Counted from the first letter of the stretch, positions 4,489-53,941 are shown. The stretch: DNA of 64,000 bases from an uncultured Armatimonadia bacterium (GCA_964528605.1 CAZGSV010000003.1:2094-66093); one strand, 5' to 3'. A program made the numbers and translations. Notes: generated by a model from the sequence alone, not told the origin.

Positions 4489-5340
4489 ATGCGCTTGGCG
4501 GTGAGTACCAGCCTGTTCGCTGACCGCACGCTCGACAAGGCGCTGCAGTCAGCGGCTCAGGTCGGCTACCAGGGTGTGGAGATAATGTGCCGCGAGCCGC
4601 ACTTGCCCCCCAGCGCCTCCCGGCAGCGCGTGGAGCAGGTCAAAGCCCTGGTCTCGGACTTGGGCCTCACCGTCTGCTGCTTGGCCACGGAGACCGGCAA
4701 TTACGGCGACGCCATGTTGCAGGAGTGCCGCTTCCAACTCGAGACCCTCCGCGTCTACCTGGAGTTTGCCCGCATTCTGGAATGCGACCTGGTCCGGCAC
4801 GGCCCCGGCGGCCCCCCCGAATGGCGCGCCGCGGCCTCCAACTGGCAGCAGGCGGCTGACTGGATGAGGCGCGCGGCGGAGACGGCGCGCGGGGCAGGCG
4901 TCCGCATTGCCATGGAGATGGCCTTCGGCACCCTGATTGAGAGCCCCGAAGCGGCGCAGCGGATGCTGCAGATGATAGGCCGCAAGGAAGTGGGCCTCAT
5001 CCTGAGCCCGGGTGACTCCTACGTGGCCCGCATCGAACTCGCCTCTCACCGCCTGTCTCCCGTCAAGGACCGGGTCTTCCTCGTGCGCGTCCGGGATGAG
5101 GCCCGCGTTGAGGGCAGCACCGCTACGGGCGTCTTCGCCGTCGGCGATCGCTATTACGAGCACCGCCTGCTGGGCGAGGGCGACGTGGACTACCGCATGA
5201 TCGCCGGCTTCCTGCGCTCCATGGAATACGACGGCTGGGTGACCACCTACTACACCGGGCTGGTCGCGCGCGACATCGCGGCCCAGCACGAGTTGCAGGC
5301 TCTGAAAGCGCTTTTCGCTCCGACGGGGGGCGAGGCGTAG
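4489..5340 (+). CDS. sugar phosphate isomerase/epimerase (xylose-isomerase-like TIM barrel)
   Basis: 283 aa, AVSTSLF...GYQGVEI pattern of the AP-endonuclease-2/xylose-isomerase-like TIM-barrel family. Stop overlaps the next start by 1 nt. Confidence 0.65.
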   Translation: MRLAVSTSLFADRTLDKALQSAAQVGYQGVEIMCREPHLPPSASRQRVEQVKALVSDLGLTVCCLATETGNYGDAMLQECRFQLETLRVYLEFARILECDLVRHGPGGPPEWRAAASNWQQAADWMRRAAETARGAGVRIAMEMAFGTLIESPEAAQRMLQMIGRKEVGLILSPGDSYVARIELASHRLSPVKDRVFLVRVRDEARVEGSTATGVFAVGDRYYEHRLLGEGDVDYRMIAGFLRSMEYDGWVTTYYTGLVARDIAAQHELQALKALFAPTGGEA

Positions 5341-6602
5341 TGCCCGGGGGGGGCTCCGCTCCCAGACTCGGGGGCGCCGAGATACTGCGTTTCCTCGAAG
5401 GCCTGCGGGGGCTCGCGCAGGAGTGGCTCACGGAACTGATCGCCATCCCCAGCCTCTCCGGGCAGGAAGCCGAGGTCCAAACCTGGGTTGTCGAGCGGCT
5501 GCGGGAAATGGGGCTCCGGCCGCAACAGTTGCCCGTCCCTGAGAGTCTGCGCGAGGACGAGGAGTACTCGCACTCCGACTGCACGGCGCCCTACGATGGT
5601 CGGCCCAACCTGGTGGCGGAGATGGGAGGGGACCAAGGAGCCAGCCTCATCTGGTCGGCCCACACCGATGTGGTTCCCGCCAAGGGCTGGGAGGGCGCCT
5701 TCACTCCGCAAGTCGAGGGCACCCGCGTGATCGGCCGCGGGGCCGTTGACGCCAAGGGACAAGTGCTGACCGCGCTGCTCGCCTGGCATGCTCTGCGCCA
5801 ACTGGGCATTGCGCTCAAGGGCCGCCTGGAGGCGCAGTTCGTCATCGAGGAGGAGTTCGGCGGCAACGGCGCCCTGGCCCTCATCCGCGCGGGACGGCGC
5901 GCCGACGGCGTCGTCGTGCTCGAGCCCACGAACCAGCAGATTCACCCCGCCAACCGTGGCGCCATCTGGTTCCGCTTCACCGTCGAGGGCAAGCCCACGC
6001 ACATGGGCCGCAAGCAGGAAGGCGTCAACGCCATCGAGGAGGCGGTCGAACTCATCCACCTGCTGCAAGATTACGAGCGCCGCTTGGTCGAGGAGAGCCG
6101 CGGCGTCCCCCAGTTCGAGCGCTACGAGGCGCCGGTGCAGGTCAACATCGGCATGATCAACGGCGGCGAGTGGCCCTCCATGGTGCCCGCCAAGGCCGTC
6201 CTTGAGGGCGGCGTCGGCTTCCTGCCCAACAAGCCGATGGCGCAGGTGAAGGAGGGACTCCGCGCCCTGGTGGAGGAGAAAGGCGGCGCATGGCTCCGCA
6301 CCCACTACCGCCTCGAGTTCCCCAAACTGCACAACGACTCGTATGCCATACCATCGGAGCACCCGCTTCCAGTGCGCTTGCAGGAGGCTTGCCGCGAGAT
6401 AGGCGTAGAGGCGGACATCTTCGGCTGGAACATCAGTTGCGACGCCCGCCTCTACAACCGCGTCGGCGGTATGCCCACGGTCGTCTATGGTGCTGGCGAG
6501 CCCGCCCAGGCGCATGCCAAGGGCGAGAACACAGATATTCGCGAGGTGCTGCGCGCCGCGGCCGCGCTGGCGCTCTTCAGCGCGCGCTGGTGCGGCACAT
6601 GA
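5340..6602 (+). CDS. M20-family metallopeptidase / ArgE-DapE-type deacylase
   Basis: AHTDVVPA motif and M20 dimerisation-domain pattern. 420 aa, GTG start. Confidence 0.75.
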   Translation: MPGGGSAPRLGGAEILRFLEGLRGLAQEWLTELIAIPSLSGQEAEVQTWVVERLREMGLRPQQLPVPESLREDEEYSHSDCTAPYDGRPNLVAEMGGDQGASLIWSAHTDVVPAKGWEGAFTPQVEGTRVIGRGAVDAKGQVLTALLAWHALRQLGIALKGRLEAQFVIEEEFGGNGALALIRAGRRADGVVVLEPTNQQIHPANRGAIWFRFTVEGKPTHMGRKQEGVNAIEEAVELIHLLQDYERRLVEESRGVPQFERYEAPVQVNIGMINGGEWPSMVPAKAVLEGGVGFLPNKPMAQVKEGLRALVEEKGGAWLRTHYRLEFPKLHNDSYAIPSEHPLPVRLQEACREIGVEADIFGWNISCDARLYNRVGGMPTVVYGAGEPAQAHAKGENTDIREVLRAAAALALFSARWCGT

Positions 6603-6764
6603 CGAGAGAGCGGTAGCATTGGGGACTGCACGTCGGGGGTGAACCCCGACGCTACGGGAGGTGCTCGGTAGCGTCCGGGTTTACTCCGGACGCCGCGGTC
6701 GCGTTCTGGGGTGGCGCCGGGAGGAGATGCGTTGGGGTGGGCTTAGAGGAAAGGAGCGTATGCA

Positions 6765-7838
6765 ATGCCCGTTCGCATTGGCGTAGTGGGCGTAGGCAAG
6801 TTCGGCGTCAACCATCTGCGCGCCTTTCGTCAGGCCGGCTGGGACGGCCGCGCGCAACTGGTGGCCGCGGCGGACACTGACGAGCGCCGCCTGGAGGAGG
6901 CGCGCCAGGAGTTCGCCGTCAAAGGCTATAGCGACTACCGCGTCATGATTGAGAAAGAGAAGTTGGACGCGGTCACCATCGTCACCCCCGATCACCTGCA
7001 CCGCGAGATCGCGCTTTTTGCGCTCGACGCGGCCAAGCACATCCTGGTCGAAAAGCCCCTCGACGTCACCGTGCAGGGCTGCCTGGACATCCTCGAGAAA
7101 GGCAGACAGGCCGGCCGCCTGGTGCAGGTTGACTTCCACAAGCGCTACGACCCCTACCATCTGGAACTCGAGCGCCTCGTGCAGGCGGGCGAACTAGGGG
7201 ACATCGAGTACGGCTACGTGCACATGGAGGACCGCCTCGAGGTGCCGCGCGACTGGTTCCCGCACTGGGCGCCGCGCTCCTCGCCCAACTGGTTCCTGGG
7301 CGTGCACTTCTACGATCTCGTTCGCTGGGTGCTGAAGAGCGACGGCAAGCGCGTCTTCGCCACGGGCAGAAAAGCGAAACTCACCTCTCTCGGCGTGGAC
7401 ACCTGGGACTCGATTCACGCGCACGTCGAGTTCGAGAACGGCGCGCAGGTGACTTTCCACTCCTCGTGGATATTGCCCGACCGTTTCGAGGCGATAGTCA
7501 ATCAGGGGCTGAGGCTGGTGGGCACCGAGGGGCTAATCGAGATTGACTCGCAGTCGCGCGGCGCGGAGATGGCGAGCGCAAAGCGGGGCCAGGCGACGCT
7601 CAACATGGGCTTCCTGCGCGAGTACAGGGACCGCAAGGGGCGCACGAACTGGGCGGGCTATGGCATCGAGAGCATTCTCGATTTCGCCGACAACGCGAAC
7701 CACCTGCTCGAGGGCGGGAAGTTGGAGGACCTCGGCGGCCGCTATCCCAGCGCGGAGGACGGGCTAGAGGTCACGCGGATCGCCTCCGCCGTCGAGGAAA
7801 GCATCGCCTCCGGCGCCCCGGTCAAGATTCAGCGTTAG
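6765..7838 (+). CDS. Gfo/Idh/MocA-family NAD(P)-dependent oxidoreductase
   Basis: N-terminal IGVVGVGKFG Rossmann motif and EKPL motif. 357 aa. Confidence 0.8.
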   Translation: MPVRIGVVGVGKFGVNHLRAFRQAGWDGRAQLVAAADTDERRLEEARQEFAVKGYSDYRVMIEKEKLDAVTIVTPDHLHREIALFALDAAKHILVEKPLDVTVQGCLDILEKGRQAGRLVQVDFHKRYDPYHLELERLVQAGELGDIEYGYVHMEDRLEVPRDWFPHWAPRSSPNWFLGVHFYDLVRWVLKSDGKRVFATGRKAKLTSLGVDTWDSIHAHVEFENGAQVTFHSSWILPDRFEAIVNQGLRLVGTEGLIEIDSQSRGAEMASAKRGQATLNMGFLREYRDRKGRTNWAGYGIESILDFADNANHLLEGGKLEDLGGRYPSAEDGLEVTRIASAVEESIASGAPVKIQR

Positions 7839-8013: not shown

Positions 8014-9099
8014 TTGTGCCTCTTGGGTGTTGCCCTGCTGGTGCTCCTCGCGGGGTGCGGGCGTGGGGGCAACGACTGGGGCCCCGATATCGTGGCGCTT
8101 TCCTGGGCAGGTGACCGCCTCCTAGTGGGCTGTGGGCCGGCGGGGCCTCGGGCGGGCGTGCTCGTGCTGGCCGCAGAGGGGCGTACCACCACAAATGCCA
8201 AATGGCTGGCCCTTCCGCGGGCGCTGCGCGGGCTGCGGCTGGCCGCGGTCTCCGGCTCACCGGACGGCCGTCGCGTAGCCGTCACGCTCGAGCGAGAATA
8301 CGACGACGTGCTCGCATACGCCGACCTGGGCAAGGGGAAGTGGCGCAGGCTGGGGCAGGGATGGTTCCGGTTCGTACAGCCCTACTGGGCACCGGATGGG
8401 AAGCGACTGGCGGTCGTCGGCATGACCGACGCGGACGAGGATTTCTGCGCGCTCATGTTTGACGTGCAGGCCGAGCGCCCGCAGGTGGCAGCGCTCAAGC
8501 CGGCGGACCCGCAGGTCACTCACGTGAATGAGGTGTCTTGGTCGCCCGACGGCAGCCGTCTGGCCCTGATGGCCCTCTCCAAGGACCAACTCGGCGACAT
8601 CTGGGTGACGCAGGCGGCTCGCCCAGGCCGCGAGTGGACGCGCCTTAGCGACGACGGCGAGGGCTGGTGGCACATGCTATCCTGGACGCCGGGGAGCACC
8701 GGAGTGGTGTACGTTCGGATCCCCAGGGCGGGCGGTCCGTATGAACTCACTCGGGTGAGTCTGGGTCGGTCGAAGCCTCGCATCCTGCTACGGTTGCCGC
8801 TTCGGGGAGACAAGCGCGGATGGCCGGGAAGCGCGCTGGGTCCGGATGGACGCGTGGCGCTTGTCAAGGAACGGGACAGTGTGGTCACGATACTTCAGGC
8901 GGGACAGCAGGCGCGCAAGGTGGACCTGAAGGAAACCCCACTCGGCGCGTACGCCTGGCACACCTCGAAGCCCAGGCTCGCCGTGGTCGCTGGCGGACAT
9001 CGCGTGTACGTGATCGACCCGGAAGCGCGCCAGGGCCGGCTCGTGTTTGACAGCGCCGCGCACCGCGAGACCGGATCGACGGGGCGGCCACCCGGCTGA
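8014..9099 (+). CDS. PD40/TolB-like beta-propeller lipoprotein
   Basis: Lipobox LLAGCG after a hydrophobic leader. Repeated W(A/S)PDG(K/S)RLA PD40-type motifs. Confidence 0.6.
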   Translation: MCLLGVALLVLLAGCGRGGNDWGPDIVALSWAGDRLLVGCGPAGPRAGVLVLAAEGRTTTNAKWLALPRALRGLRLAAVSGSPDGRRVAVTLEREYDDVLAYADLGKGKWRRLGQGWFRFVQPYWAPDGKRLAVVGMTDADEDFCALMFDVQAERPQVAALKPADPQVTHVNEVSWSPDGSRLALMALSKDQLGDIWVTQAARPGREWTRLSDDGEGWWHMLSWTPGSTGVVYVRIPRAGGPYELTRVSLGRSKPRILLRLPLRGDKRGWPGSALGPDGRVALVKERDSVVTILQAGQQARKVDLKETPLGAYAWHTSKPRLAVVAGGHRVYVIDPEARQGRLVFDSAAHRETGSTGRPPG

Positions 9100-9149
9100 G
9101 GGGCGCTCCTATCGGGCAGAGGGCGGGCCCTCCTGCGGCTGGTAAACCA

Positions 9150-9360
9150 GGCGGCCGTCCCCTACGCCTCGACGCCTGGCGGCGTCGCGGGCGGAGTCAA
9201 GTCTCCGCCCCTACGAGGGATGGGCGGTGCCTGCGGCGTCGCCCCGCCAAAGGCGGGGCTCCTACAAGGCGACGCCTAACGGCGTCGCTGAGGGTCGCGC
9301 CCAAGGGCGCTCCTACAAGTCCGAGGCCCGGCGGCGTCGCGCCCCTGTCTACTGTCTACT
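9150..9360. repeat. cluster of REP-like units (CTAC + GACGCC-TGGC/TAAC-GGCGTC palindrome, at 9161-9176 and 9271-9286, plus a degenerate third) followed by CTGTCTACTGTCTACT (9345-9360)
   Basis: Palindromes and direct repeats read directly. The same units recur at 16070, 18632 and 18778. Confidence 0.7.
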
Positions 9361-9369
9361 CCCTTGGGG

Positions 9370-10041
9370 TCATGTGCGCCCGGCTGCCCAGAGCGCCGCG
9401 TTGCAGAGGACGCGCTTGACCTCGGACTGGAAGTAAACGGGACAGGTCTCGTGCCCGGGGCGGAAGTAGAAGATGCGGCCCTTGCCCCGCGTCCAGCAGC
9501 AGCCCGAACGGAACTCCTCGCCGCCCTCGAAGTAGGAGTAGAAGACGACCGCCTCCGGAGTCGGCACCGCGAACGGCTCGTTGTACATCTCGTCGTGCGG
9601 GATGACGAAGTCGGTCACGCCCTGGGCGATGGGATGGTCGGGCAGCAGCACCTTGACGCGCTCGGACTTGTCGTCCTCGCGCCAGCCACCCAGGCCGCAC
9701 TCGGTGCCCATGAGGGCCTTGAAGGGCTTGGAGTAGTGCGCGGAGTGCACGGGGCAGAAGCCCATGCCGTCCTCCTTCACGCGGCGGACGACGCGCTCGA
9801 CGTAACGATCCTCGACATCGCCGTGGCGGCCGTGGCCGAACCAGAAGAGCACGTCGGCTTCCGCAAGCCTGGCCTCCGACAGGCCCTGCTCGGGCTCGTT
9901 GATGTGGGCGGCGACGACAGTGATGCCGCCGCAGGCGTTGAGGGCTTCAGCGATGGCGCCGTGGATTCCGTTGGGGTAGACGTTCCTAGGCTCGGTCCAC
10001 TCAGACCAGACCAACGCGCGCACCGGGCAACACTCGCTCAT
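9370..10041 (-). CDS. ThuA-like (trehalose-utilisation/GATase1-like) protein
   Basis: 223 aa from ATG (MSECCPVRALVWSEW...). ThuA-like pattern (HG..H....GIHGAIAEAL, GKGRIFYFRPGH). Confidence 0.6.
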   Translation of the reverse strand: MSECCPVRALVWSEWTEPRNVYPNGIHGAIAEALNACGGITVVAAHINEPEQGLSEARLAEADVLFWFGHGRHGDVEDRYVERVVRRVKEDGMGFCPVHSAHYSKPFKALMGTECGLGGWREDDKSERVKVLLPDHPIAQGVTDFVIPHDEMYNEPFAVPTPEAVVFYSYFEGGEEFRSGCCWTRGKGRIFYFRPGHETCPVYFQSEVKRVLCNAALWAAGRT

Positions 10042-10249
10042 CTCAGCCTCCTGCTCAGGGCCCGGACCGGCTTCGCTCGCGGGCACGGGTTGACTTGTAG
10101 CGCGGCATAGTAGGCGGGCGCGAGGCGGGGGTCAAGCGACCAGGGCTGACGGCGCGCTATGAGCGTTCCCGCCTCTGGGCTATAATGCGCCCGCTCGCCC
10201 CTGGCGGGCGCACCTCTGGCTGCGAGCCAAGCGGAAAGGAAGCGTAGCG

Positions 10250-10879
10250 ATGGCGAAGATCAAGACTTTGCTTTTCTGCGGCGGGGAGATTCACGACGGC
10301 ATCGGGTGCGGCACGGTCATGCAGGAGGTGCTCGAAGAGACCGGGGAGTTCGAGATAACTCGCGTGGAAAACGACCTCTCCGTCTTCGAGAAGCCGGACC
10401 TGAAGAAGTACGACCTGATCGCGTTCTTCTACACCGTGGGGCAGATAACGGAGGCGCAGAAGAACGGCCTGCTCAACTTCGTCGCTTCGGGCAAGGGCAT
10501 CGCGGGGGCGCACTCGATGGCCGACTCGTTCCGCGACTGCCCGGAGTACCGGGCGATGGTCGGCGGCTACTTCGTCACCCATCCGCGCTTCCGCCAGTAC
10601 CAAGTGAGCATCGTGGACCCCGAGCACCCGCTCACGCAGGGCCTGGACGAGTTCTTCGTGGAGGATGAGCAGTACATCACCGCCTACGACTCGAGGGTGC
10701 ACGTGCTCGCCTCCGCATTGTGGAAGGGGCAGGCGATGCCGGTGGCGTGGACGCACACCTGGGGCAAAGGCCGCGTGTTCTACCTGGCGCTGGGCCACAA
10801 CCCCGAGGCCTGCCGCCATCAGATGTTCAAGGTGCTCTTCCAGCGCGGCGCGAAGTGGGCAGGGACGGCCACTGAGTAG
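10250..10879 (+). CDS. ThuA-like protein (second, divergent copy)
   Basis: 209 aa, LLFCGGEIHDG...GKGRVFYLALGH, the same family signature as the neighbouring gene. Divergently transcribed. Confidence 0.6.
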   Translation: MAKIKTLLFCGGEIHDGIGCGTVMQEVLEETGEFEITRVENDLSVFEKPDLKKYDLIAFFYTVGQITEAQKNGLLNFVASGKGIAGAHSMADSFRDCPEYRAMVGGYFVTHPRFRQYQVSIVDPEHPLTQGLDEFFVEDEQYITAYDSRVHVLASALWKGQAMPVAWTHTWGKGRVFYLALGHNPEACRHQMFKVLFQRGAKWAGTATE

Positions 10880-10933: not shown

Positions 10934-11806
10934 ATGCGGCATCTGATACTCGACACCGACATCGGCGACGACGTAGACGATGCCTTTGCTCTGGCGCTGC
11001 TCTTGCGGCTGCCGCAGGCCAACCTCACCGCGGTCACGACCGTGCACGGCGCGGTGGAGGCGCGCGCACGCATTGCATTGAAGATGGTTGCGGCGGCGTG
11101 CCGCGAAGATGTGCCGGTGTACGCCGGCAGCCCTGGCCGGGGCGAGCGCAGCCGCCCACTCGCTTACGGCGGCTGGGCATCGGATTGGCATGACACTCAG
11201 CCGGCCGCAGGCGATGCGGCATCGTTCATCGTCTCGCGCGTCACGGACTCGCCGCCGGGGACGGTCACGCTTCTCGCCGTGGGCCCCCTGAGCAATGTAG
11301 CCCTTGCGCTAAGGCAGGAGCCGCGCGTGGCCGCGCGTTTGCGCCGGCTGGTGATAATGGGGGGCTCGGTGCGAGTGGGCTACAGGCCTGGGAGTCCGCC
11401 CTGTCTGGAGTACAACATCGCCTGCGATCCGGCGGCGGCCAAGGTGGTCTTTGAGAGCGGCGCGCCGCTGCTGGTGGCGCCTCTGGACGCCACCATGATG
11501 CTCCAGCCCTCGCGCGAGCAACTCGAGGCCTTGGCCGGCTCCCCTGCCCCTCTGGCGCGGGCCTTGCAGGAATGCCTGACCCTGTGGGGCCGGGGCGTGC
11601 CCACGCTCTTCGATCCGATGGCCGCCGCCTGCGCGCTGGACGACCCGGGCCTGCGGTTCGCGGAGACCGAGCGGATGCACCTCGAGGTCACCGACAACGG
11701 GCTAACAGTGGAACGCCGCGGCCTGCCCCCCAACGCCGAGGTGGCGACCAGCGCGAGGGCGCAGGATTTCCTCAACTGGTACTTCGACGCGCTCCTGCGG
11801 GCGTAG
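10934..11806 (+). CDS. nucleoside hydrolase (inosine-uridine preferring family)
   Basis: DTDIGDDVDDAFAL Ca-binding aspartate cluster close to the N-terminus. ATG at 10934 preferred over GTG at 10925. Confidence 0.75.
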   Translation: MRHLILDTDIGDDVDDAFALALLLRLPQANLTAVTTVHGAVEARARIALKMVAAACREDVPVYAGSPGRGERSRPLAYGGWASDWHDTQPAAGDAASFIVSRVTDSPPGTVTLLAVGPLSNVALALRQEPRVAARLRRLVIMGGSVRVGYRPGSPPCLEYNIACDPAAAKVVFESGAPLLVAPLDATMMLQPSREQLEALAGSPAPLARALQECLTLWGRGVPTLFDPMAAACALDDPGLRFAETERMHLEVTDNGLTVERRGLPPNAEVATSARAQDFLNWYFDALLRA

Positions 11807-11809
11807 TGA

Positions 11810-13759
11810 CTACCGTCCGGTTCCCGCTCTGGGCCGTTGGTGCTTTGCGACCAGGGAGTTCGCCCGCCGCAATTGCGCCTCGATCTGGCCCAGTTGCCGA
11901 GTGATGTACTCCCGCGGATGGCCGACGGCCTCCTCCGCCTCGTGCGCCAGCCCGGCCTCAACGCGTTTCAGGAAGCCACTGATGTCCGCCTCGCCCAACG
12001 GGTAGGGATCCGCGGCCCAGCCCGCGAGCAGCGTGGCCAACTCCGCCCGCCACTCGGCCTGTTCCGCCTCCGCCCCTGAGACCAGCGGCGCGGGGTTGCT
12101 CTCCCACTGCATTCCCCTAAGCGCCAGTATGAGGGGCTCGTAGTCGCAATCGGACCGCAGGCGCGGGAAGCCGAACTCCACCACGCGAACGTCCTCCGCG
12201 CCCTCGAGCCGGCGGTGGTAGTTGAGCCGCGAAAACTCCAGGCCCGTGTAGGGATTCACGATCTCGCCCTCGTAGATGCGGCGCTCGCGCAGCCGGCCCT
12301 GCTCGTCCTCCCTCACGTCGCCGCCGAGCAGCAAGAGGCAGATGAGGTCGTTGGGATGCTCGGGAGTGGCGAACGGCCTCCCGCGCGGCGGATCCACGGA
12401 GAGATGAATGCTGTGCGAAGGCACGGGCACGAAGCGGACGATCTCCTCGATGAGCCGCGCCAAGACCCAGGGGTCGCACGTGGCCGGCTTGGACAGGTCG
12501 CCCACGATGCGGTAACGGCCGAGCGCGAATTCGAGGAAGCCGCGGCTGCGCTCGCGCGAGCCGGTGACGAATTTGTGGTCGTCCCTATAGCCGCCGAGTT
12601 TCCACAGCCGGCGCGTCAGGTCGAAGTCGTGGAAATAGTAGAAGCAATCGAACACCGGGTCCTGTCCGGGCCCTGCGGCGATGGTTGCCCTGCCTAGGTG
12701 GCTCAGTTCAAGTTCCGCGCCCAGGGGCGTCCCCCCCTTAGAGCGATGCCCCGCCACCCAGGCCGCGATTTCCGCTGCCTGGTGCTGGTCGAACAGAGCC
12801 TCGGCGATGAGCACCCCTGCCGCCACGTAGTCGCTGTACTCCATCTCGCCGTGGTAGAGCCCGAGGTCGCGCGCAGCGATATGCTGCGCCAGCGCCTGCT
12901 TGCGTTCGTTGAGGTAGCGCAGGGCGATCAGCGAGGAGAGCATGTGCTGATGGAAAGCAGCGGGCGTGCGCGTCAGCGAACGAAACTCGCGGCGCACTTT
13001 ATCCTCAACCTCGTTGAAGACCGTGAAGCGCGCGATCAAGTCGAGGTATGCAGGGGCGTAGGGCTGCGCTGCCGGCTCCTCAGCGAGCCAGCGGAGGCTG
13101 GGCAAGGGCTGCTGCCGCACGGCGTAGCGCAGGAGATGCGGCGAGAGCGCCCCCTCGAACTGCGCTTGCAGCATCTCCTCGGTGGCGCCGCCCAGCAACT
13201 CGGCCCGGATGCGTCCTTGCACGGCTGCCGACTTCTCGTCGCCCACCTCGGACTGCAGCAGGCGCTCCAGGCGCTCAGCGAGGTGCTCCTCTACGCGTTC
13301 CTCCGGCCCCATTCCCTCGGCGGCGCCAAAGGCGCCGGGGTTGCCCACGTAGGTGTAGGCGGCCACCTCCTCGCCTTCCACAACGACGGACACCTGGCGC
13401 CGAAAGTACAGGTGGCCCTCGCCCTCGTATTCGTCCATGCGGAGCAGCGACTCGGCGTCGAGGCCCTCGATGACCTTGCCGCGGACGGTGCGCCCTTCCT
13501 TGGCGATGATGTAGGGATAGGCCGAGCCCCCCCCTGCACGCTCGAACCCGCGCAGGATGGCGTCGCGGTAGTGGAAGCCCTTGCCCGTGAGCGCGCGCAC
13601 GTGTCGGGGGTCGAGCAGCGTGCCATAGACGAAGAGGCGGTAGGTTGGCGGCTTGGCCCTGGGCTGGGCGCTGGGCGCGCGCGGGTCCTGATTCCGCTGG
13701 TCCGCTGTGTCCGTCACGCCCTCCCGCCTCTTGGCCGGGCTACTAGCCTTTCCAGCCAC
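11810..13759 (-). CDS. large hypothetical protein with N-terminal gamma-glutamylcyclotransferase (GGCT/AIG2)-like domain
   Basis: YRLFVYGTLLDP...EGYLRMDEYEGEG matches the GGCT-like fold signature. The remaining ~500 aa were not recognised. The 5' end overlaps hypB by ~45 nt, so the true start may lie further downstream. Confidence 0.5.
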   Translation of the reverse strand: MAGKASSPAKRREGVTDTADQRNQDPRAPSAQPRAKPPTYRLFVYGTLLDPRHVRALTGKGFHYRDAILRGFERAGGGSAYPYIIAKEGRTVRGKVIEGLDAESLLRMDEYEGEGHLYFRRQVSVVVEGEEVAAYTYVGNPGAFGAAEGMGPEERVEEHLAERLERLLQSEVGDEKSAAVQGRIRAELLGGATEEMLQAQFEGALSPHLLRYAVRQQPLPSLRWLAEEPAAQPYAPAYLDLIARFTVFNEVEDKVRREFRSLTRTPAAFHQHMLSSLIALRYLNERKQALAQHIAARDLGLYHGEMEYSDYVAAGVLIAEALFDQHQAAEIAAWVAGHRSKGGTPLGAELELSHLGRATIAAGPGQDPVFDCFYYFHDFDLTRRLWKLGGYRDDHKFVTGSRERSRGFLEFALGRYRIVGDLSKPATCDPWVLARLIEEIVRFVPVPSHSIHLSVDPPRGRPFATPEHPNDLICLLLLGGDVREDEQGRLRERRIYEGEIVNPYTGLEFSRLNYHRRLEGAEDVRVVEFGFPRLRSDCDYEPLILALRGMQWESNPAPLVSGAEAEQAEWRAELATLLAGWAADPYPLGEADISGFLKRVEAGLAHEAEEAVGHPREYITRQLGQIEAQLRRANSLVAKHQRPRAGTGR

Positions 13760-14394
13760 GCGAGCCAGGCGTCCATGCCTTCCCCGCTCATGGCCGAGAG
13801 CGCGATGACCTCGACGCCCGGAGCGACCGCGCGCACGGTCTCGCGCAGGCGCGCCAACGAGACCGGCAAGTGCGGGAGCAGGTCAATCTTGCTTATGAGC
13901 GCCGCCGCCAGCCCCTGGAAGATCGCGGGATACTTGAGCGGCTTCTCCTCGCCCTCGGTGACGCTGAGCAGCACGACGCGCGCGTTCTCGCCCAGGTCGA
14001 AGGCGGCGGGGCAGATGAGGTTGCCCACGTTCTCGATGAAGAGCAGGTCCGCGGCCCGCAGGTCCAGGGAATCGAGCGCGCGCGCCACCATGCCAGCGCT
14101 CAGATGGCATTCGCCGCCGAAGGCGCTCGTGGTCACTTGCACGGCGGGGATGCCCAGGCGGTGGAGCCTGCGAGCGTCAAGATCGGTGGCGACATCGCCC
14201 TGCACGGCCGCCAGCCTCCAGCGCCCGCCCGCCAGTTCAGCCGTCTTCTCCAACAGCGAGGTCTTGCCTGCCCCCGGCGAACTCATCAGGTTGACGGCAA
14301 CGCAGCCGGCCTCCCGCAGGCGCCGACGAATGGCGTCCGCCTGTGCGCGGTCGTCCGCCAGCATGTCCTCGCCTATCTCTATGCGCTCGGACAT
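13714..14394 (-). CDS. hypB: hydrogenase/urease-type nickel-incorporation GTPase HypB
   Basis: P-loop SPGAGKTSLLE and ENVGNLICPAAFDLGE signature. ATG (MSERIEIGEDML) chosen at 14394. Confidence 0.85.
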   Translation of the reverse strand: MSERIEIGEDMLADDRAQADAIRRRLREAGCVAVNLMSSPGAGKTSLLEKTAELAGGRWRLAAVQGDVATDLDARRLHRLGIPAVQVTTSAFGGECHLSAGMVARALDSLDLRAADLLFIENVGNLICPAAFDLGENARVVLLSVTEGEEKPLKYPAIFQGLAAALISKIDLLPHLPVSLARLRETVRAVAPGVEVIALSAMSGEGMDAWLAWLERLVARPRGGRA

Positions 14395-14747
14395 TTCTGC
14401 TTCTCCTCGACCAACTCCAGCGACTCGATCTCCAGTTCCCGGCCGCTCACCAACTCCACCTGTTCGCTCCCGCACGCTGGGCACCTGAACGGCGGCCCGC
14501 GCACTTCGGACTCCTGTCCGCACCCTGAGCAGCGCAGCCTGGGCGGCACCGACTCGATCTCGACTCGTGCTCCGGCAAGCGGACTGTGCGGCAGCAGCAA
14601 CTCCAGGCCAAACCTGAGCGCCTCCACCTCGACGCCGGAGAGTTGCCCGACGCGCAGGCGGATGGCCGCCGCGCGGGTGCCCGGGCGGCTGTGCAGCGCC
14701 CTGGAGGCCCTGTCCACGATTCGACTCGCCAGCGCGAATTCGTGCAT
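14379..14747 (-). CDS. hypA: nickel-insertion protein HypA
   Basis: Starts MHEFALA, with two CxxC pairs (CSGCG...CPACG). 122 aa. 3' end overlaps the hypB start. Confidence 0.8.
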   Translation of the reverse strand: MHEFALASRIVDRASRALHSRPGTRAAAIRLRVGQLSGVEVEALRFGLELLLPHSPLAGARVEIESVPPRLRCSGCGQESEVRGPPFRCPACGSEQVELVSGRELEIESLELVEEKQKCPSA

Positions 14748-14928
14748 TCTCCGGTTCGGCGGTCCCGCCGCTTACGCCAGTGGTTCCGCCGCCATCCTCC
14801 CCAGTTTACCCGGCCCCGTCAACGGGCGTTCGGCGCCGAGTTCGCCGGCTGGCGGCCGCGGGATTTGAGGAAGCGGGCCGGTTGATGCACAATTGCACAC
14901 CACTTCCATATGGGAGGGAGCATCGGCA

Positions 14929-15996
14929 ATGGTTCGAGTAGGTGTTATCGGCGCCGGCATGATCGCTCAACGCGAGCACATCCCCGGTTATCAGAAGTGC
15001 GGCAACGCGGAGGTCGTGGCGGTTGCGGACCCGCTGGAGGACCGCGTCAAAGAGGTAGCGTGCTGCTTCAACATCCCCAACGTCTACACCGAGTGGCGCA
15101 AAGTGGTGCAGCGGAAGGACGTTGACGCCGTGAGCGTGTGCACGCCCAACGCGACCCACGCGGAGATCTCCATCGCCGCCGCCAAGGCAGGCAAGCACGT
15201 GCTGGTGGAGAAGCCGATGGCCACCTCCATGGCGGAGGTGGACGCCATGATAGCCGCGGCCGAGAAGGCCGGCGTGCATCTCATGGTGGAGCAGACCGTC
15301 CGCTTCTACCCCGAGTCGGAGGCCGCCAAGGACATCCTCGAGAGCGGCATACTCGGGAAGATCCAGACCGTCCGCGGTCGCGTCAGTCACGGCGGGCCCG
15401 AGTATTGGAGCCCGACGGGCAAATGGTTCTTGCAGAGGAAGCACGCCTTCGGCGGCACCATGTGCGATCTGGCCATTCACGGCATTGATCTAATCCGCTG
15501 GCTGGTGGGCGAACCCATCGTCGAGGTCGCGGGCTTCCAGGGGCTGCTCGAGAAGAAGGGCACCGACGTGGAGGACAACGGCGTCTTCATTTACAAGTTC
15601 GCCAGCGGGGCGATGGGCACCATGGAGTCCTCGTGGACCACGCGCCCGGAGGACACCTGCGTCCACCTCTACTGCCAGAACGGCAACATCAAGTTGACGC
15701 TATGGCAGGAGGAGGAGACGGTGGTGACGCAGCCGATGGTGGTGGAGGTGGAGTGCCCCGCTGGGGCGTTCGTGCCCAGCCTGCCGAAGGAGAGCCGGCG
15801 GGGCGGGCCGTTCGCCTACTTCGTCCACTGCATTGAGACCGGCGAGAAGCCGTTCGTCTCGGGCGAGGAGGGCGGCGCGAGCCTGGAGGTCATTCTGGCG
15901 GCCTACGAATCCGCCCGCACGGGCAAAATCGTCCGGCTGCCTCTGCCGCGCAAGAGGGCAGAGGCCGCGCCCACACGGGGCAAGAAGCGGAGGTAG
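14929..15996 (+). CDS. Gfo/Idh/MocA-family oxidoreductase
   Basis: MVRVGVIGAGMIAQ Rossmann start and EKPMA motif. ATG at 14929 preferred over the upstream extension. Confidence 0.8.
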   Translation: MVRVGVIGAGMIAQREHIPGYQKCGNAEVVAVADPLEDRVKEVACCFNIPNVYTEWRKVVQRKDVDAVSVCTPNATHAEISIAAAKAGKHVLVEKPMATSMAEVDAMIAAAEKAGVHLMVEQTVRFYPESEAAKDILESGILGKIQTVRGRVSHGGPEYWSPTGKWFLQRKHAFGGTMCDLAIHGIDLIRWLVGEPIVEVAGFQGLLEKKGTDVEDNGVFIYKFASGAMGTMESSWTTRPEDTCVHLYCQNGNIKLTLWQEEETVVTQPMVVEVECPAGAFVPSLPKESRRGGPFAYFVHCIETGEKPFVSGEEGGASLEVILAAYESARTGKIVRLPLPRKRAEAAPTRGKKRR

Positions 15997-16069: not shown

Positions 16070-16144
16070 GATGCCTGACGGCATCGCGGGCCGATTAAGA
16101 ATCGGCCCCTACGCCAGACGGCGGGCGAGCCGCCCGGCTCGCCC
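16070..16144. terminator. three GC-rich hairpins between convergent genes (GATGCCtgacGGCATC 16070-16085, GGGCCGATTaagAATCGGCCC 16088-16108, GGGCGAGCCgcccGGCTCGCCC 16123-16144)
   Basis: Perfect inverted repeats read directly and flanked by CCTACG motifs. Likely bidirectional terminators or REP-like elements. Confidence 0.4.
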
Positions 16145-17419
16145 CTACCGTTTGTCCACGCCGGGGATGGTCGTCCGCGGCTCGACGGGGATGCTCAGCA
16201 ATTCGTCGGCGTTCTCGTGGATCTTGGCGCAGGCGTCCACGATGGAATCGAGCCCCTTCTCCTCCTCCAGCAGCAGCCAGTGGAAGAGCGTGACGCCCTC
16301 GTCGTAGGCGGCCCTCTCCGCAACCGGGAGCGAGAAGCGCCGCGGGTCGATCTCCTTCCAGTGCGCCTCGCTGAAGTGATAGCGCGGCTTGGTGTGCGGT
16401 TGGTAGATGTCGCAGTTGTTCAGCGGCGAGTACGGCGTCCATAACCCGAGCCCGAGTTCCTTGCCGAGCGCCACGTTGAAGGCATCGCGCGGCGCGCCCT
16501 TGAAATGCTCGCGGTTGTAACGGAAGCAATAGAGGTAGCAGTCCTGCCGGGTCACCCGCGGGTCGCGCTTCATCGGCGCCAGGCCAGGAATCTCCGCCAG
16601 ACGCTTGTTGAGGTAGAGGGCACGCTCGTCACGCAACTTGGTGCGCTCCTCGAGCAGTTCGAACTGCGCGAGCAAGGTGGCGGCCTGGAACTCGGTGATG
16701 CGGAAGTTGCCGCTCTGGATGTTCTCGCCCTCGCCGTCCTTGAACTTGCGGCCGCAGTTGCGCAGCGAATAGACGCGCAAGAACAGGTCGCGGTCGTCCA
16801 TTAGGATGATGCCGCCCTCGCCCGAGGGCAGCACCTTGGTCTCCTGACAACTGAACGAGCCGAGATTGCCGATGGCGCCCGCGCCCTTGCCCTTCCAGAA
16901 GGAGCCGTGCTGGTGCGCCGTGTCTTCGACGACGAATAGGTTGTGGCGCTTGGCGATGTCCATGATCGCGTCCATGTCGGCCATGCAGTTGTAGAGGTGA
17001 ACGGGGATGATGGCCTTGGTGCGCGGGGTGATGGCCTCCTCCGCCTTCTTGGGGTCAATGCAGTAGGTGTCCGGCTCGACGTCCACGATCATGGGCACGG
17101 CGTTGACGTCGAGGCAGGCGGCGGCGGTGGCCTGGAAGGTGAGCCCGGGGACGATGACCTCGTCGCCCGCGCCGATGCCCAGGGCCTCCAGGCAAAGTTG
17201 CAGGGAGACGGTGCCATTGGCCACGCAGAGAGCGTACTTGGCGCCCTTGAACTGGGCGAACTTCTCCTGAAACTCCCACTCCTTGGGGCCGTCGAAAGAC
17301 CACTTGTCGGCCTTTACGACCTCGAGGATGAGGTCTATCTGGCGCTGGGTGTGCTGCGGCCAGGTGGGCCAGGGCTTGGTGCGCACCGGCGTGCCGCCGT
17401 GGATTGCTAGTTTGGCCAT
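16145..17419 (-). CDS. DegT/DnrJ/EryC1/StrS-family PLP-dependent sugar aminotransferase
   Basis: MAKLAIHGG...KWSFDGPKEWEFQEKFA... conserved pattern of the family. ATG at 17419. The 300-aa upstream in-frame extension in the ORF track overlaps the divergent aldolase gene and is rejected. Confidence 0.8.
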   Translation of the reverse strand: MAKLAIHGGTPVRTKPWPTWPQHTQRQIDLILEVVKADKWSFDGPKEWEFQEKFAQFKGAKYALCVANGTVSLQLCLEALGIGAGDEVIVPGLTFQATAAACLDVNAVPMIVDVEPDTYCIDPKKAEEAITPRTKAIIPVHLYNCMADMDAIMDIAKRHNLFVVEDTAHQHGSFWKGKGAGAIGNLGSFSCQETKVLPSGEGGIILMDDRDLFLRVYSLRNCGRKFKDGEGENIQSGNFRITEFQAATLLAQFELLEERTKLRDERALYLNKRLAEIPGLAPMKRDPRVTRQDCYLYCFRYNREHFKGAPRDAFNVALGKELGLGLWTPYSPLNNCDIYQPHTKPRYHFSEAHWKEIDPRRFSLPVAERAAYDEGVTLFHWLLLEEEKGLDSIVDACAKIHENADELLSIPVEPRTTIPGVDKR

Positions 17420-17520
17420 TCGTTCACCACTTCCTTGGGCTGGGCTCGCCCGCCTCAGGCGGACGGGAGAGTTATTGTAGCGCGCCGCGCGTGCCGCCGC
17501 AACGTGCTCCACCCGCCACC

Positions 17521-17554
17521 AAGTAGACAGTAGGTAGCAGACAGTAGATAGTAG
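17521..17554. promoter_or_regulatory. ACAGTAG direct-repeat array (AGTAGACAGTAGGTAGCAGACAGTAGATAGTAGC) in the divergent promoter region
   Basis: Repeats have 14-nt phasing and lie in an AT-enriched patch between divergently transcribed aminotransferase and aldolase genes. The same motif is at 9345, 30512, 30657 and 30739. Confidence 0.4.
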
Positions 17555-17602
17555 CGGGCAAGGGGACCTGACGTAGGCGCCCGGCGTCGGAAGAGGGCAA
17601 GG

Positions 17603-18800: not shown

Positions 18801-21451
18801 CCACCGATGTAGCCGGTGGCGGCCGGTGAGCCGCGCTTCGTGGGCCACGGGGCAGGGCCGCGGCCCGCGGAGGAGAGGCAGTACAGTTTCCCGTCCCGCG
18901 AAGGCACCAGAATCTCCAGCAGCCCGTCGCCGTCCAGATCGGCAGCCGCCGGCGAGGCGCTTATCTTCATATCCGTGCGGAACTGCCATTCCAGTTTGCC
19001 CTGGTTGTCAATGCAGTACAGAGACCGGTCCGTGTTGCCGACGAGCACGTCGAGGCGCCCGTCCCCGGTCACCTCCGCGATCGCCGGCGCGGAATCGGCA
19101 CCCGCGGCGCAGCGGTAGCGCCACCTCTCCTGCCCGGTGCCGTCCAGCGAGAAGATCGTCTGCTGCCCGCCGCGCGCGCCCGAAAGGCAGAACACCCAGC
19201 CGGTGTTGTCCACGAAGACGAGGTCGAGGCGGCCGTCCGCGTCCATGTCGGCGCACGCCAGAGTCGCATCAATGTGGCCAGGCGTCCGGGCGAACCATTC
19301 GACCTGCCCGGTCGCGCCCGAGAGGCAATAGAGCCCATGCCCCTTCTTCCGCGAGCACCCGCAGACGACCTCCGCCTGGCCGTCGGAGTCCGCGTCCAAT
19401 ACGAGCGGGCCGCAGAAGAAGTCGCACTGGTCGTTGAAGGCCCAAAGCGGCGATCCGTCCGCACGCAGGCACACGAGCCCGACCTCGGCCGCCGGAGCCA
19501 CAATCTCCAACTCAGGCGTGTCGTCAACGTTGCCCACGGCCAGCGGAGCCTGGATCGAGCCGCCGCACTCGTGCTTCCACAGCAATTCTCCCGAGGCCGC
19601 GTCGAGGCAGTAGACGCGCCCGTCAACGTCGCCGGTGAGCGCCTCGGGCTTGCCGTCCTTGTTGAGGTCCGCGAGCGCCGCGCCCCCCCATTCGACCCCG
19701 TTGTCCAAGGCGCGCGTCCAGAGGAGCGAACCGTTGTCGTCCACCAGGCTTATCTCTCGGTCGTTCTGCGGCACGACCATTTCGTCGCGGCCGTCAACAT
19801 CCAGATCAGCGCAGGCCATGGTGGCGGTCTGCCGCGCGCCGAGGTCGAGCGCCCACAGGCGGTTCCCGTCGCCATCAATGGCATGCAAGAGGCGATCGTC
19901 CGCGCCCAGCAGAATCTCCGGCTGCGGATCGCTGTCCAGTTGCGCCAGGGTAGGCGAACACTGAATCTGCTGCCCGATGAAGTACGTCCACTTGACCCGC
20001 GGCTCGACCCAAGCCTGCGCATGAGCAGTCGAGGCGACCGTGCCGCGTGAGGTATGGAACGTGGCGCGGACGCGCAAGGGATAGACGCCCGTGGCTGCGT
20101 CCGCAGGAGCCACGATGCGGAACTCCACGGGAACCACGGCGCCGGCGGCTGGCCTGAGGCTCAGGACCTCGGGCTCGGCGCGCCAGCCTTTCGGCACGAG
20201 TGGCCGCAGGCGCGCGGCCTGAGCGCTCCCGCCGGTGGGCAAGCGCAGTCTGCCGCGCAGCGTTTGGGCCCGGTCACTGCCTTCCAGGGGCTTCACCGGC
20301 AGCGTCTGTAGGCTCAGGGCGGCGCGGAGCACGAGCGCCTGGGGGAAGCGCCCTCGAAAGACCGCCCCAGCCTTGGTCAGGGGCAGCCGCGCCCGGCCGT
20401 TGACAACCGGGACCTCCGACTCCTGCCCGTCCCAGGCGATCACCCTCAGCGACTCGCCCACGCCCGGTACGGACCACCGGGTGTCACCGGTGAGCGTCCA
20501 GGCGACCAGGAAGGGCCCGTCCTTGTCTTCAAGCACATGAACTTCGTTTCCTGTGAGCGTCTCCAGCGCGCCCAGGTAGCGCGCCTGCCCCAACTGGCTC
20601 GAGGCCATGCTGAGGGCCTTGTCTATCTCCGGCGCCGCGCCCTGGTGGAACGTGTCGTCGTAGGTGAAGAGGCAGCCGATGTCCGCCGCAAGCGCCATGG
20701 TGTAGTTGCGCAGCAGGAAACCCCAACCGGAACCGTCCTCCGTCAGCCAGAGGGGCGCGTCCCGCCGCCCATACTGCGCCAGCATCTCTCGCATGCGCTC
20801 CGCGTCCTGGCGCATCTGCGCCTCGGGGGCGAACGAGTAGGGATGGTATGCGAGTATGTCAAAGCACTGGCCGCCGGTCTGGGCGCACACCTCGGAGATG
20901 AAGGTGAGGTCCGGCCGCGCGACGCCGCCGAAGACGACCTGCAGCCTCGGGTCTATCGCCTTGATCTCCTCATAGGCCGCCTTGAGCAATCGCGCGTAGC
21001 CGACGGGGTCGCCCAGCGTCACCCAGAAAGGCGGGATGTTGGGCTCGTTCCAGATTTCCCAGTAGCGGATGCGGTCCTGGTAGCGAGTGACGGTGGTGGC
21101 GATGAAGCGGCGCCAGGCATTGACGTCCACTTCCGAGCCGCGGTTGCCCTCCTCGGTTCCGCTCGCCCAGCCCGGAGAGTAGCCGACTAGGCCGAGCACG
21201 TTGAGGCCGGCGGCGAGGTTGGCGGCGATGATGTCGTCCATCGAGGCGAAGTCGAACTTGCCCGGTTCCGGCTCAAGGTGGGGCCAGCCCATATCGGCGC
21301 GGAGCCAGCGGATGCCGACGTTGTAGAAGCGCTGCGAGAGGGCGAGGTCGGGGTTATGGCCGGCGAAGCCGAACAGCGGGCGCTCATCGGCGCCGGCGCT
21401 TCCGCAGAAGCAGAACACGAGCAAGAGCACTAGCGGGCGCTTCATCATTAC
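18797..21451 (-). CDS. secreted glycoside hydrolase (clan GH-A, GH5-like NEP motif) fused to FG-GAP/PQQ-like beta-propeller repeats
   Basis: Signal peptide MMKRPLVLLLVFCFCGSAGA. YWEIWNEPN acid/base motif and LTEDG nucleophile context. C-terminal repeated DxDGDG/xDGxxLW blades. Confidence 0.55.
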   Translation of the reverse strand, partial: VMMKRPLVLLLVFCFCGSAGADERPLFGFAGHNPDLALSQRFYNVGIRWLRADMGWPHLEPEPGKFDFASMDDIIAANLAAGLNVLGLVGYSPGWASGTEEGNRGSEVDVNAWRRFIATTVTRYQDRIRYWEIWNEPNIPPFWVTLGDPVGYARLLKAAYEEIKAIDPRLQVVFGGVARPDLTFISEVCAQTGGQCFDILAYHPYSFAPEAQMRQDAERMREMLAQYGRRDAPLWLTEDGSGWGFLLRNYTMALAADIGCLFTYDDTFHQGAAPEIDKALSMASSQLGQARYLGALETLTGNEVHVLEDKDGPFLVAWTLTGDTRWSVPGVGESLRVIAWDGQESEVPVVNGRARLPLTKAGAVFRGRFPQALVLRAALSLQTLPVKPLEGSDRAQTLRGRLRLPTGGSAQAARLRPLVPKGWRAEPEVLSLRPAAGAVVPVEFRIVAPADAATGVYPLRVRATFHTSRGTVASTAHAQAWVEPRVKWTYFIGQQIQCSPTLAQLDSDPQPEILLGADDRLLHAIDGDGNRLWALDLGARQTATMACADLDVDGRDEMVVPQNDREISLVDDNGSLLWTRALDNGVEWGGAALADLNKDGKPEALTGDVDGRVYCLDAASGELLWKHECGGSIQAPLAVGNVDDTPELEIVAPAAEVGLVCLRADGSPLWAFNDQCDFFCGPLVLDADSDGQAEVVCGCSRKKGHGLYCLSGATGQVEWFARTPGHIDATLACADMDADGRLDLVFVDNTGWVFCLSGARGGQQTIFSLDGTGQERWRYRCAAGADSAPAIAEVTGDGRLDVLVGNTDRSLYCIDNQGKLEWQFRTDMKISASPAAADLDGDGLLEILVPSRDGKLYCLSSAGRGPAPWPTKRGSPAATGYIGG

Positions 21452-22950: not shown

Positions 22951-22956
22951 TCCGCT

Positions 22957-24674: not shown

Positions 24675-24821
24675 AGGACCCGCAGCGCTCTGCGAGGGCG
24701 ATCAGTGCGCCTTGCCATCACCCTTTTGGGCGACCTGCGCGCCGTTTCCCCCGGCTTGCGGCCGGCTACGCGCTGTGGTAACACCCCAAAGGTCGCCTTT
24801 GACGCATCCTAACCTATCGAG

Positions 24822-39554: not shown

Positions 39555-39586
39555 TTATCAACATCTGTGCATAACGCTGTGGATAT
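39555..39586. promoter_or_regulatory. cluster of three DnaA-box-like 9-mers (TTATCAACA, TGTGCATAA, TGTGGATAT)
   Basis: Each is one mismatch from TTATCCACA or its complement, spaced 11-12 nt apart, 70 nt upstream of the dnaA start. Confidence 0.5.
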
Positions 39587-39652
39587 GTTCGTCGCTCTCG
39601 CGAGTTGGTGCCCGGAGCAACATATTGTCTGCAATCGAGGAGCGGCATTTGC

Positions 39653-48943: not shown

Positions 48944-48978
48944 GGGCCCGCACTGGGCCGCACAGAGGATGCACTGGG

Positions 48979-53840: not shown

Positions 53841-53941
53841 GTCTGGCCTGGTGTTGGACCCAGGCACCCTGGGCCTCGTGCCCCGGGACCTGGTCAGAGC
53901 GCCGGCGCCGAGCCGGGCAAAGCCCCGGCGCCCGAGCCCGC

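Follow-up and report, generated by a model that had tools for sequence, protein, structure and literature searches.

The 64,000-nucleotide stretch of DNA analyzed here (the window) comes from an uncultured Armatimonadia bacterium (GCA_964528605.1, CAZGSV010000003.1:2094-66093) and carries, on the minus strand between positions 11,810 and 14,747, the overlapping genes hypA and hypB followed by a gene for a fusion protein with an N-terminal domain of the gamma-glutamyl cyclotransferase (GGCT)/AIG2-like type. The preferred reading, to which a probability of about 0.55 is assigned, is that these genes form a lineage-specific operon that joins a canonical nickel-chaperone pair, whose client would be encoded elsewhere, to an uncharacterized protein with a GGCT domain and a ligase-like domain of the glutamine-synthetase (GS) fold, which would act in gamma-glutamyl/glutamate metabolism.

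According to this proposal, the operon would combine two functionally unrelated modules. HypA, with its zinc ribbon and Met-His-Glu (MHE) nickel site, and HypB, a GTPase with a Cys/His metal site, would most likely deliver nickel to a [NiFe]-hydrogenase or to another nickel enzyme whose gene lies beyond the 64 kb. The ligase-like half of the fusion protein would activate the gamma-carboxylate of glutamate, in a reaction dependent on ATP and on Mg or Mn, by which a gamma-glutamyl amide would be made or, in a Dop-like manner, broken, while the GGCT half would cyclize the gamma-glutamyl group to 5-oxoproline with release of the amine. The substrate and the direction of this reaction, like the action of HypA and HypB elsewhere, are what we infer from the gene structure, the domain identities, the predicted fold, the distribution of the family and its gene neighborhoods, which are described below.

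Organization of the three genes

The hypA gene (14379..14747, minus strand) encodes a protein of 122 amino acids (aa), and hypB (13714..14394, minus strand) most likely starts at the ATG at 14394 and encodes 226 aa, as opposed to the 269-aa open reading frame (ORF) that runs from the first GTG; the exact 226-aa product is present in NCBI (P0122). As read from the sequence, the stop of hypA and the start of hypB overlap by 16 nt (14379..14394, minus strand), which, together with the family profile matches and motifs given in the next section, bears out the initial annotation of a classic overlapping pair. That annotation had also placed the start of the next gene on the same strand before the end of hypB, and this is indeed what is found: the TGA stop of hypB and the GTG start of the fusion gene (11810..13717, minus strand, 635 aa) share the 4 nt GTGA (13714..13717, minus strand).

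When the third ORF is taken from its first GTG, at 13759, it spans 11810-13759 and encodes 649 aa, and the overlap with hypB grows to 46 nt. The GTG at 13717, which yields the 635-aa form, is the start in the NCBI (P0001) and JGI (L078, L079) gene calls. Because these two codons are the only in-frame starts that precede the conserved FVYGTL strand, the fusion ORF begins inside hypB either way, and not well downstream of it. At its other end, the fusion gene stops 3 nt from the stop codon of a convergent nucleoside-hydrolase gene.

Upstream of the operon, a 145-bp intergenic region (14748..14892) separates hypA from a divergently transcribed gene for a GFO/IDH/MocA oxidoreductase, and this gap is the sole room for an operon promoter. 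A scan of positions 11500-15200 returned no promoter, although the sigma-70 consensus used is uninformative for this organism, and a terminator scan of the same interval returned one terminator-like site, at chance level, inside the fusion gene. The overlapping junctions point to co-transcription of hypA, hypB and the fusion gene.

The HypA and HypB chaperones

The product of hypA matches the Pfam family HypA (PF01155) with an E-value of 5e-29 and 101 bits (cutoff 28.9), and scores 80.2 bits with NCBIfam TIGR00100, slightly under the cutoff of 88.1. Its translation starts with MHEFAL, which contains the Met-His-Glu nickel site, and includes the CxxC-x12-CxxC arrangement of the Cys4 zinc site in the form CSGC-x12-CPAC. 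The product of hypB scores 243.5 bits with the equivalog model TIGR00073 (cutoff 121.2), with UreG far lower, and possesses the motifs of a G3E GTPase, namely the Walker A sequence SPGAGKT, the Cys-His motif GGECH, ENVGNLICPAAFDLGE, the cysteine of ENVGNLICP, and SKIDLL. The protein is 50-58% identical to the HypB of many phyla.

Apart from the close relatives that share the three-gene order (the clade discussed below), the nearest HypB homologues are 54-57% identical and, in the two loci examined (L081 and L082), are encoded in hypF-D-E-A-B clusters. The cluster of L082 is directly followed by genes for the small and large [NiFe] subunits, a cytochrome b, HycI and HypC. That of L081 has no hydrogenase gene within 10 kb, and a LarC-type Ni_insertion gene is located about 10 kb away. 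Thus, the window hypAB pair looks like a canonical hydrogenase-type module that became detached from hypFDE, and this part of the operon is already known, ordinary biology. In L082, a 1.3-Mb ENA contig, the gene calls break both hypF and hypE into two ORFs (4991-7416 and 8661-9643), probably because of assembly frameshift errors, so that these are not likely to be real pseudogenes.

The initial annotation had seen no hydrogenase, urease or CODH gene in the 64 kb, and Pfam, tblastn and motif searches all agree with it. The Pfam scan covered 50 of 54 long ORFs chosen by codon-position GC content, the other four being short ORFs nested on the opposite strand within larger ones, and detected no hydrogenase, urease, CODH, LarA, nickel transporter or hypCDEF in the window. 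When the window was searched by tblastn with HypC, HypD, HypE, HypF, the small and large [NiFe] subunits, cytochrome b, HycI and a LarC fragment, all taken from L081 and L082, hypA alone was matched. Furthermore, the DPCxxCxxH motif does not occur in any of the six frames of the window. The products that are encoded include sugar and oxidoreductase enzymes, ThuA, PD40 propellers, an ABC sugar transporter, the dnaA-dnaN-dciA group, ArgRS, and a sulfatase with a radical-SAM/SPASM protein. The sole metal-transport-like gene (52995-53945, minus strand) encodes a putative ArsP_2-type heavy-metal exporter with ten transmembrane segments, and nothing ties it to nickel. The absence of a hydrogenase from the window is weak evidence about the client of HypA and HypB, because the hyp cluster of L081 also lacks a hydrogenase within 10 kb, and such an arrangement is not unusual.

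The cyclotransferase domain and the family of the fusion protein

The N-terminal part of the fusion protein is a GGACT/AIG2-like gamma-glutamyl cyclotransferase domain (13337..13636, minus strand). It matches PF06094 over residues 42-141 of the 649-aa form, or 28-127 of the 635-aa form, with an E-value of 2e-19 and 70.5 bits (cutoff 22.8), and the same match is obtained with all 42 family members scanned. For the other ~500 aa, neither the fusion protein nor any of its 41 relatives has a Pfam match, even at E<=10, a threshold at which the 42 members match the GGACT and AIG2_2 families alone, and the window protein has no NCBIfam match in this part either. The initial description of a GGCT/AIG2-like domain fused to about 500 unassigned residues thus holds.

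A sequence-profile search of the PDB retrieved AIG2 proteins only (2jqv, 2g0q and 1vkb), with no match to the C-terminal part, and Foldseek matched the N-terminal domain to 2g0q, 3cry and 3jub, that is, to AIG2-like, GGCT and GGACT structures, each with a probability of 1.0. Across the family alignment, F29, V30, Y31, G32, L34 and E98 are conserved to 90% or more, and they make up the FVYGTL strand and Glu98. The latter is aligned to the Glu of the 'DDFE' sequence in mouse GGACT (1vkb), which we take to be the catalytic Glu82 that is replaced in the E82Q mutant of PDB entry 3jud.

A homology search with the fusion protein yielded 142 homologues, mostly full-length (~600-650 aa), from uncultured Armatimonadota, Zixibacteria, Omnitrophota, Aureabacteria/Auribacterota, Poribacteria, KSB1, Coatesbacteria, Victivallales, Spirochaetota and others. 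By exhaustive HMMER search, the C-terminal part is found in only 100 clusters (50% identity) in a set of 1.84 billion representatives. These clusters include standalone forms of ~470-490 aa, which are devoid of a GGCT domain and match no Pfam family (P0293, P0294, P0296, P0297, P0306, P0310, P0318, and positions 8001-9440 of L080); the neighbors of P0293, a xanthine-dehydrogenase-type gene, an aminotransferase and DUF3141, are uninformative. The literature on such fusions, on pairings of GGCT with a PafA-like domain and on orphan hypAB yielded no description of the family. The two-domain enzymes of the family are rare and uncharacterized, and 80% of their length is covered by no Pfam model.

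The predicted fold of the C-terminal domain

Following the GGCT domain, the models display three regions: an all-helical region at residues ~138-325 (12743..13306, minus strand), which was delimited with DSSP and has no Pfam match; a beta-sheet core at residues ~326-545 (12083..12742, minus strand), which has a predicted PafA/Dop/GCL-like fold; and a three-helix region at residues ~546-635, which with the stop codon occupies 11810..12082 (minus strand). The AlphaFold2 model of the full-length protein has a predicted local distance difference test (pLDDT) score of 91.4 and a predicted template-modeling score (pTM) of 0.90, and the corresponding values for the C-terminal 505 aa are 92.4 and 0.93.

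When the C-terminal 505 aa were compared with the PDB by Foldseek, five matches had a probability above 0.2, and a sharp drop followed. These were the Pup ligase PafA (4bjr chains A and B, 1.00 and 0.99), the depupylase/deamidase Dop (4b0r, 0.97) and the bifunctional glutathione synthetase GshF with its glutamate-cysteine ligase (GCL) domain (3ln6 and 3ln7, 0.98 and 0.77), over 363-435 aligned columns; all five are members of the GS-fold carboxylate-amine ligase superfamily, the fold of which is an antiparallel beta-cradle. On the strength of these models, the C-terminal ~500 aa likely adopt a GS-like carboxylate-amine ligase fold. Strict membership of the PafA or GCL families is not established, as the domain gives no sequence-profile match with them.

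The C-terminal part of the family is marked by the invariant or nearly invariant motifs PLGAELEFS, DFDLxRRxWKLGGxxDDH, RGFLExAFGR, DLSKP and PHSLHIS, to which CLLLLGGD, LRExRI, FPRL, ALKGxQ and WAxxPxP are added. In total, ~25 residues are invariant and ~45 are nearly so, concentrated on the beta-core and with acidic, His and Arg residues among them. E335, E337, D379, H381, E396 and H435 are among the invariant ones, and G333, E335 and E337 are on the first strand of the core, where the invariant GAELEF sequence (GxExE[FY]) resembles the GIETEY strand of PafA. Residues such as E335 and E337 may be candidate counterparts of the metal and ATP ligands of PafA. Because the five fold matches and GGCT all act on the gamma-carboxyl group of glutamate or on the gamma-glutamyl group, both domains of the protein point to gamma-glutamyl chemistry.

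Gene neighborhoods inside and outside the clade

The hypA-hypB-fusion order recurs in contigs of 71-73% identity, namely L074, L075/L076 (also recovered as L084) and L077 (GCA_964567035.1), and in the near-identical strain represented by L078 and L079, in which HypB is 98% identical. The clade as a whole covers a range of 71-99% identity. Where hypB meets the fusion gene, the window and L074 have GTGA and L077 has an overlapping TAATG, while L075/L076 have no canonical start at this point. The flanking genes for GFO/IDH/MocA, DegT, HpcH and nucleoside hydrolase are also syntenic in the clade, and because the synteny extends to these unrelated genes, it does not count as a separate sign of selection. 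In a comparison of DnaA, the closest relatives with a name belong to the Armatimonadota, and at only 50% identity to them the placement of the lineage is not confident.

One difference between the close strains is an indel next to the operon. In L078 (618-6555; JGI Ga0373626_0000139), ~6 kb with a secretin gene and five ORFs that have no Pfam match lie between the DegT and HpcH genes, which are adjacent in the window (~16100-17600).

Outside the clade, where the relatives of the fusion protein are at most 46% identical, the picture is different. A tblastn search with the window HypA and HypB found neither gene in any of 72 loci (67 from GTDB representatives and five contigs), 59 of the 68 analyzed loci having at least 1.5 kb of upstream DNA. 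Neither was found in the 78 usable loci among 80 further metagenome loci, the other two being L084, which is a clade member, and L083, which has no upstream DNA. In total, the search covered ~1.7 Mb of DNA from ~145 loci outside the clade. The three-gene order proposed for comparison in the initial annotation is hence conserved within the clade and absent from the loci of the family elsewhere.

The fusion genes of these other phyla have neighbors of their own. In 54 loci, the gene directly upstream encodes an HMGL-type synthase that resembles homocitrate and isopropylmalate synthases but scores below all equivalog cutoffs, and that is a probable Re-citrate synthase. Directly downstream, 45 loci have a gene for a 170-aa protein without a family, followed by genes for a TPR protein, an isocitrate-dehydrogenase-like protein (40 loci) and an aconitate hydratase (33 loci), a representative of which scores 925 bits (NCBIfam cutoff 612). 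This conserved operon (HMGL-type synthase, fusion, 170-aa protein, TPR protein, isocitrate dehydrogenase, aconitase) is present in KSB1, Zixibacteria, Coatesbacteria, Modulibacteria-like and other metagenome-assembled genomes, for example in L009, L019, L030, L033, L042, L044 and L050, and LutABC, Ldh_2, LplA, LarA and a GlnE-like gene are often nearby. In a distant subfamily the order is AccA, a NAGS-like GNAT, the fusion gene and a glutamate racemase (TIGR00067, 237 bits, cutoff 147). The recurring theme of the neighborhoods is 2-oxoglutarate and glutamate, not nickel. The LarA gene 6 kb upstream of the fusion gene in Zixibacteria was considered as a possible link to nickel and rejected, since it belongs to a lactate-utilization block (LutABC, Ldh_2, LarA), is not adjacent to the fusion gene and is absent from most loci.

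These results also bear on the suggestion, made in the initial annotation, that the hypAB pair might serve the fusion protein. In view of the lack of hypAB in both sets of outside loci, the 2-oxoglutarate/glutamate contexts that the family has instead, and the predicted ligase fold of the ATP/Mg type, the suggestion is not supported.

The fusion family appears to be a more interesting lead than hypAB, and is a new variant of known folds. In uncultured phyla such as Zixibacteria, KSB1, Omnitrophota and Coatesbacteria, it is flanked by a Re-citrate-synthase-like gene on one side and by the aconitase/isocitrate-dehydrogenase genes on the other, which makes it a testable lead to an undescribed step of glutamate/gamma-glutamyl metabolism in those phyla.

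The client of the chaperones and the role of the fusion protein

Several observations weigh against the reading of an operon with two unrelated modules. No hydrogenase and no hypCDEF genes were seen within the window. The fold matches of the C-terminal part have TM-scores of 0.27-0.33, E-values of 4e-3 to 0.25 and root-mean-square deviations of 9-11 A; hhalign against the PafA of C. glutamicum gives a probability of 0.05, with no sequence-level link; and none of the 42 members has a Pup_ligase or GCS match in Pfam. The clade of the window lacks the glutamate-related neighbors that are usual for the family, and because of this the role of the fusion protein may have shifted in it. Finally, hypB and the fusion gene overlap tightly at their stop and start codons, and this overlap is kept in three variants (GTGA, GTGA and TAATG) despite a diverged N-terminal extension, a pattern which argues for real co-translation of the two genes or at least for their co-regulation.

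In a rival reading, HypA and HypB would be dedicated maturases, which would load Ni2+ into the divalent-cation sites of the GS-fold domain in place of Mg or Mn. Such a role is considered unlikely, even though the three genes form one translationally coupled unit, every clade member seen has them in the same order (71-99% identity), no other nickel client is encoded in the 64 kb, and the six invariant acidic and His residues from E335 to H435 could form a metal site. Hyp-type chaperones beside clients other than hydrogenases are also documented (PMC12704784, PMC10927577). The association, however, is absent from the ~145 loci of other phyla; by contrast, the co-occurrence of gdmH with ghaAB is reported to be common across cyanobacteria (PMC12704784). 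The synteny within the clade, which covers unrelated flanks, may be merely inherited, and there is no nickel transporter in the operon or the window, unlike in the Mfm operon. The nearest HypB homologues reside in hydrogenase-type hyp clusters, and we know of no GS-fold enzyme that uses nickel. The fusion proteins of the clade have no specific His/Cys cluster and no enrichment in these residues, with only H49, H102, H256, C358 and H454 scattered along the chain, but the missing signature is not decisive, as Ni replaces Mn without new ligands in GdmH and MfmAB. A wider form of the same idea, in which hypAB was recruited to metallate the GGCT-ligase fusion and the family is, independently, an undescribed bifunctional gamma-glutamyl amide ligase/cyclotransferase, encoded in many uncultured phyla within an operon for the TCA branch that forms 2-oxoglutarate, is judged improbable. 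If it were true, the protein would be the first nickel-dependent enzyme of the glutamine-synthetase/PafA fold and would found a new class of non-hydrogenase Hyp-chaperone clients, after the ureohydrolases GdmH and MfmAB. The coupled hypA-hypB-enzyme unit is on this account a candidate for a new nickel-dependent enzyme, though the comparative evidence argues against it.

Other explanations concern one half of the operon each. HypA and HypB could serve a nickel enzyme that is not a hydrogenase and is encoded elsewhere, such as a urease, a LarA-type enzyme, a ureohydrolase or another one, with the fusion gene as a passenger of the operon. HypA and HypB feed urease in Helicobacter, which lends some plausibility to this option. 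Their supply of the Helicobacter urease has been discussed (PMC12182095). The L081 cluster, with its distant LarC-type gene and no nearby hydrogenase, is in line with such a client, on which the content of the window places no constraint. No positive evidence favors it, however; HypB reaches a full equivalog score with UreG far below, and the clusters that hold its closest homologues contain hypFDE and, in L082, are followed by a hydrogenase. This option is held to be improbable. As for the fusion protein, its C-terminal 500 aa might be a module without catalytic activity that regulates or scaffolds the GGCT enzyme to which it is joined, with the likeness to PafA and GCL as a remote echo of the fold. 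The low TM-scores, the high deviations and the want of any sequence-level relationship would agree with this, as would the helical region, in which ~190 of the 505 residues have no counterpart in the fold matches. A scaffold is nonetheless doubtful, since the invariant acidic, His and Arg residues on the beta-core are typical of an active site, standalone versions without GGCT exist, as expected for an autonomous enzyme, and the five top fold matches all derive from one superfamily before the sharp drop. The operon of a canonical chaperone pair, with its client elsewhere, and a GGCT/GS-fold ligase protein remains the preferred reading.

Other features of the window

Genes for dnaA (39575-41017), dnaN (41215-42345) and a DciA-family protein (42470-43129) are grouped in the window, which, judged by this gene content, probably spans the chromosomal replication origin. 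A radical-SAM/SPASM gene (57339-58766) occurs near a sulfatase gene (60871-62661), and the two look like an anaerobic sulfatase with its maturase. The interval holds two ORFs that have no Pfam match, at 58727-60352 (541 aa) and 60353-60769 (138 aa).

Four further long ORFs have a coding-like GC content at the third codon position and no Pfam family. Those at 21448-22956 (502 aa) and 48796-49932 (378 aa) have none at E<=1e-5, and those at 24813-27272 (819 aa) and 56216-57358 (380 aa) have none at E<=1e-3. Beyond the fusion gene, the nucleoside-hydrolase gene is adjoined by two divergent ThuA-like genes (9370-10131, minus strand, and 10163-10879, plus strand). Their region is rich in genes for GFO/IDH/MocA proteins, xylose-isomerase-like TIM barrels and PD40 proteins, and the block is syntenic in L078.

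Comparison with known systems

The chaperone pair of the window shares with the [NiFe]-hydrogenase HypA/HypB module (the HypA/HybF and HypB type of E. coli) the MHE start, the zinc site with two CxxC motifs, the G3E motifs, the Cys-His motif and the cysteine of ENVGNLxCP. As in many hyp operons, hypA and hypB overlap, and the nearest homologues are part of hypFDEAB clusters. It differs in that the 64 kb contain no hypC, hypD, hypE or hypF, no endopeptidase gene and no hydrogenase structural gene, in that HypA falls slightly under the TIGR00100 cutoff, and in that an unrelated enzyme gene follows the pair. HypB also lacks the N-terminal CxxCGC motif and a His-rich stretch.

Closer in gene arrangement are two systems with clients other than hydrogenases. 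The nickel-dependent guanidine hydrolase GdmH of cyanobacteria has the HypA/HypB-like maturases GhaA and GhaB encoded beside it (PMC12704784), and the metformin hydrolase MfmAB is encoded in an operon with HypB and HypA (PMC10927577). In both, as in the window, where co-transcription is suggested by the overlaps, hypA and hypB homologues are grouped with the gene of a non-hydrogenase enzyme. Their clients, however, belong to the ureohydrolase superfamily and have a family-wide link to the chaperones, whereas the fusion family has no such link in the loci outside the clade, and the nickel importer of the Mfm operon has no equivalent near the window operon.

With regard to the fusion protein, PafA, Dop and the GCL domain of GshF are the best and the only significant structural matches of its C-terminal part; its GxExE[FY] first strand resembles the GIETEY strand of PafA, and all of them act on the gamma-carboxyl group of glutamate, as the window protein is predicted to do. 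In contrast to them, the window protein has no membership of their families by sequence, a TM-score of ~0.3 and a 190-aa helical region before the core, and, compared with PafA and Dop, it has no Pup or proteasome context and is fused to a cyclotransferase. Its N-terminal domain has the PF06094 match, the YGTL motif, the aligned Glu and the fold in common with GGACT/AIG2-like proteins (human GGACT, 3juc; Arabidopsis 2g0q and 2jqv; E. coli YtfP). The known members, however, are single-domain proteins of ~120-170 aa, and in the window protein the domain accounts for the first fifth of 635 aa.

A functional parallel is offered by butirosin biosynthesis, in which the ligase BtrJ adds a gamma-glutamyl protecting group and the AIG2-like cyclotransferase BtrG removes it. 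The fusion protein, as proposed here, would resemble this system by pairing an ATP-dependent gamma-glutamyl amide ligase with a releasing enzyme of the GGCT type. The two differ in that BtrJ has an ATP-grasp and not a GS fold, and in that BtrJ and BtrG are separate proteins of an antibiotic cluster, whereas the fusion family is encoded in contexts of central metabolism.

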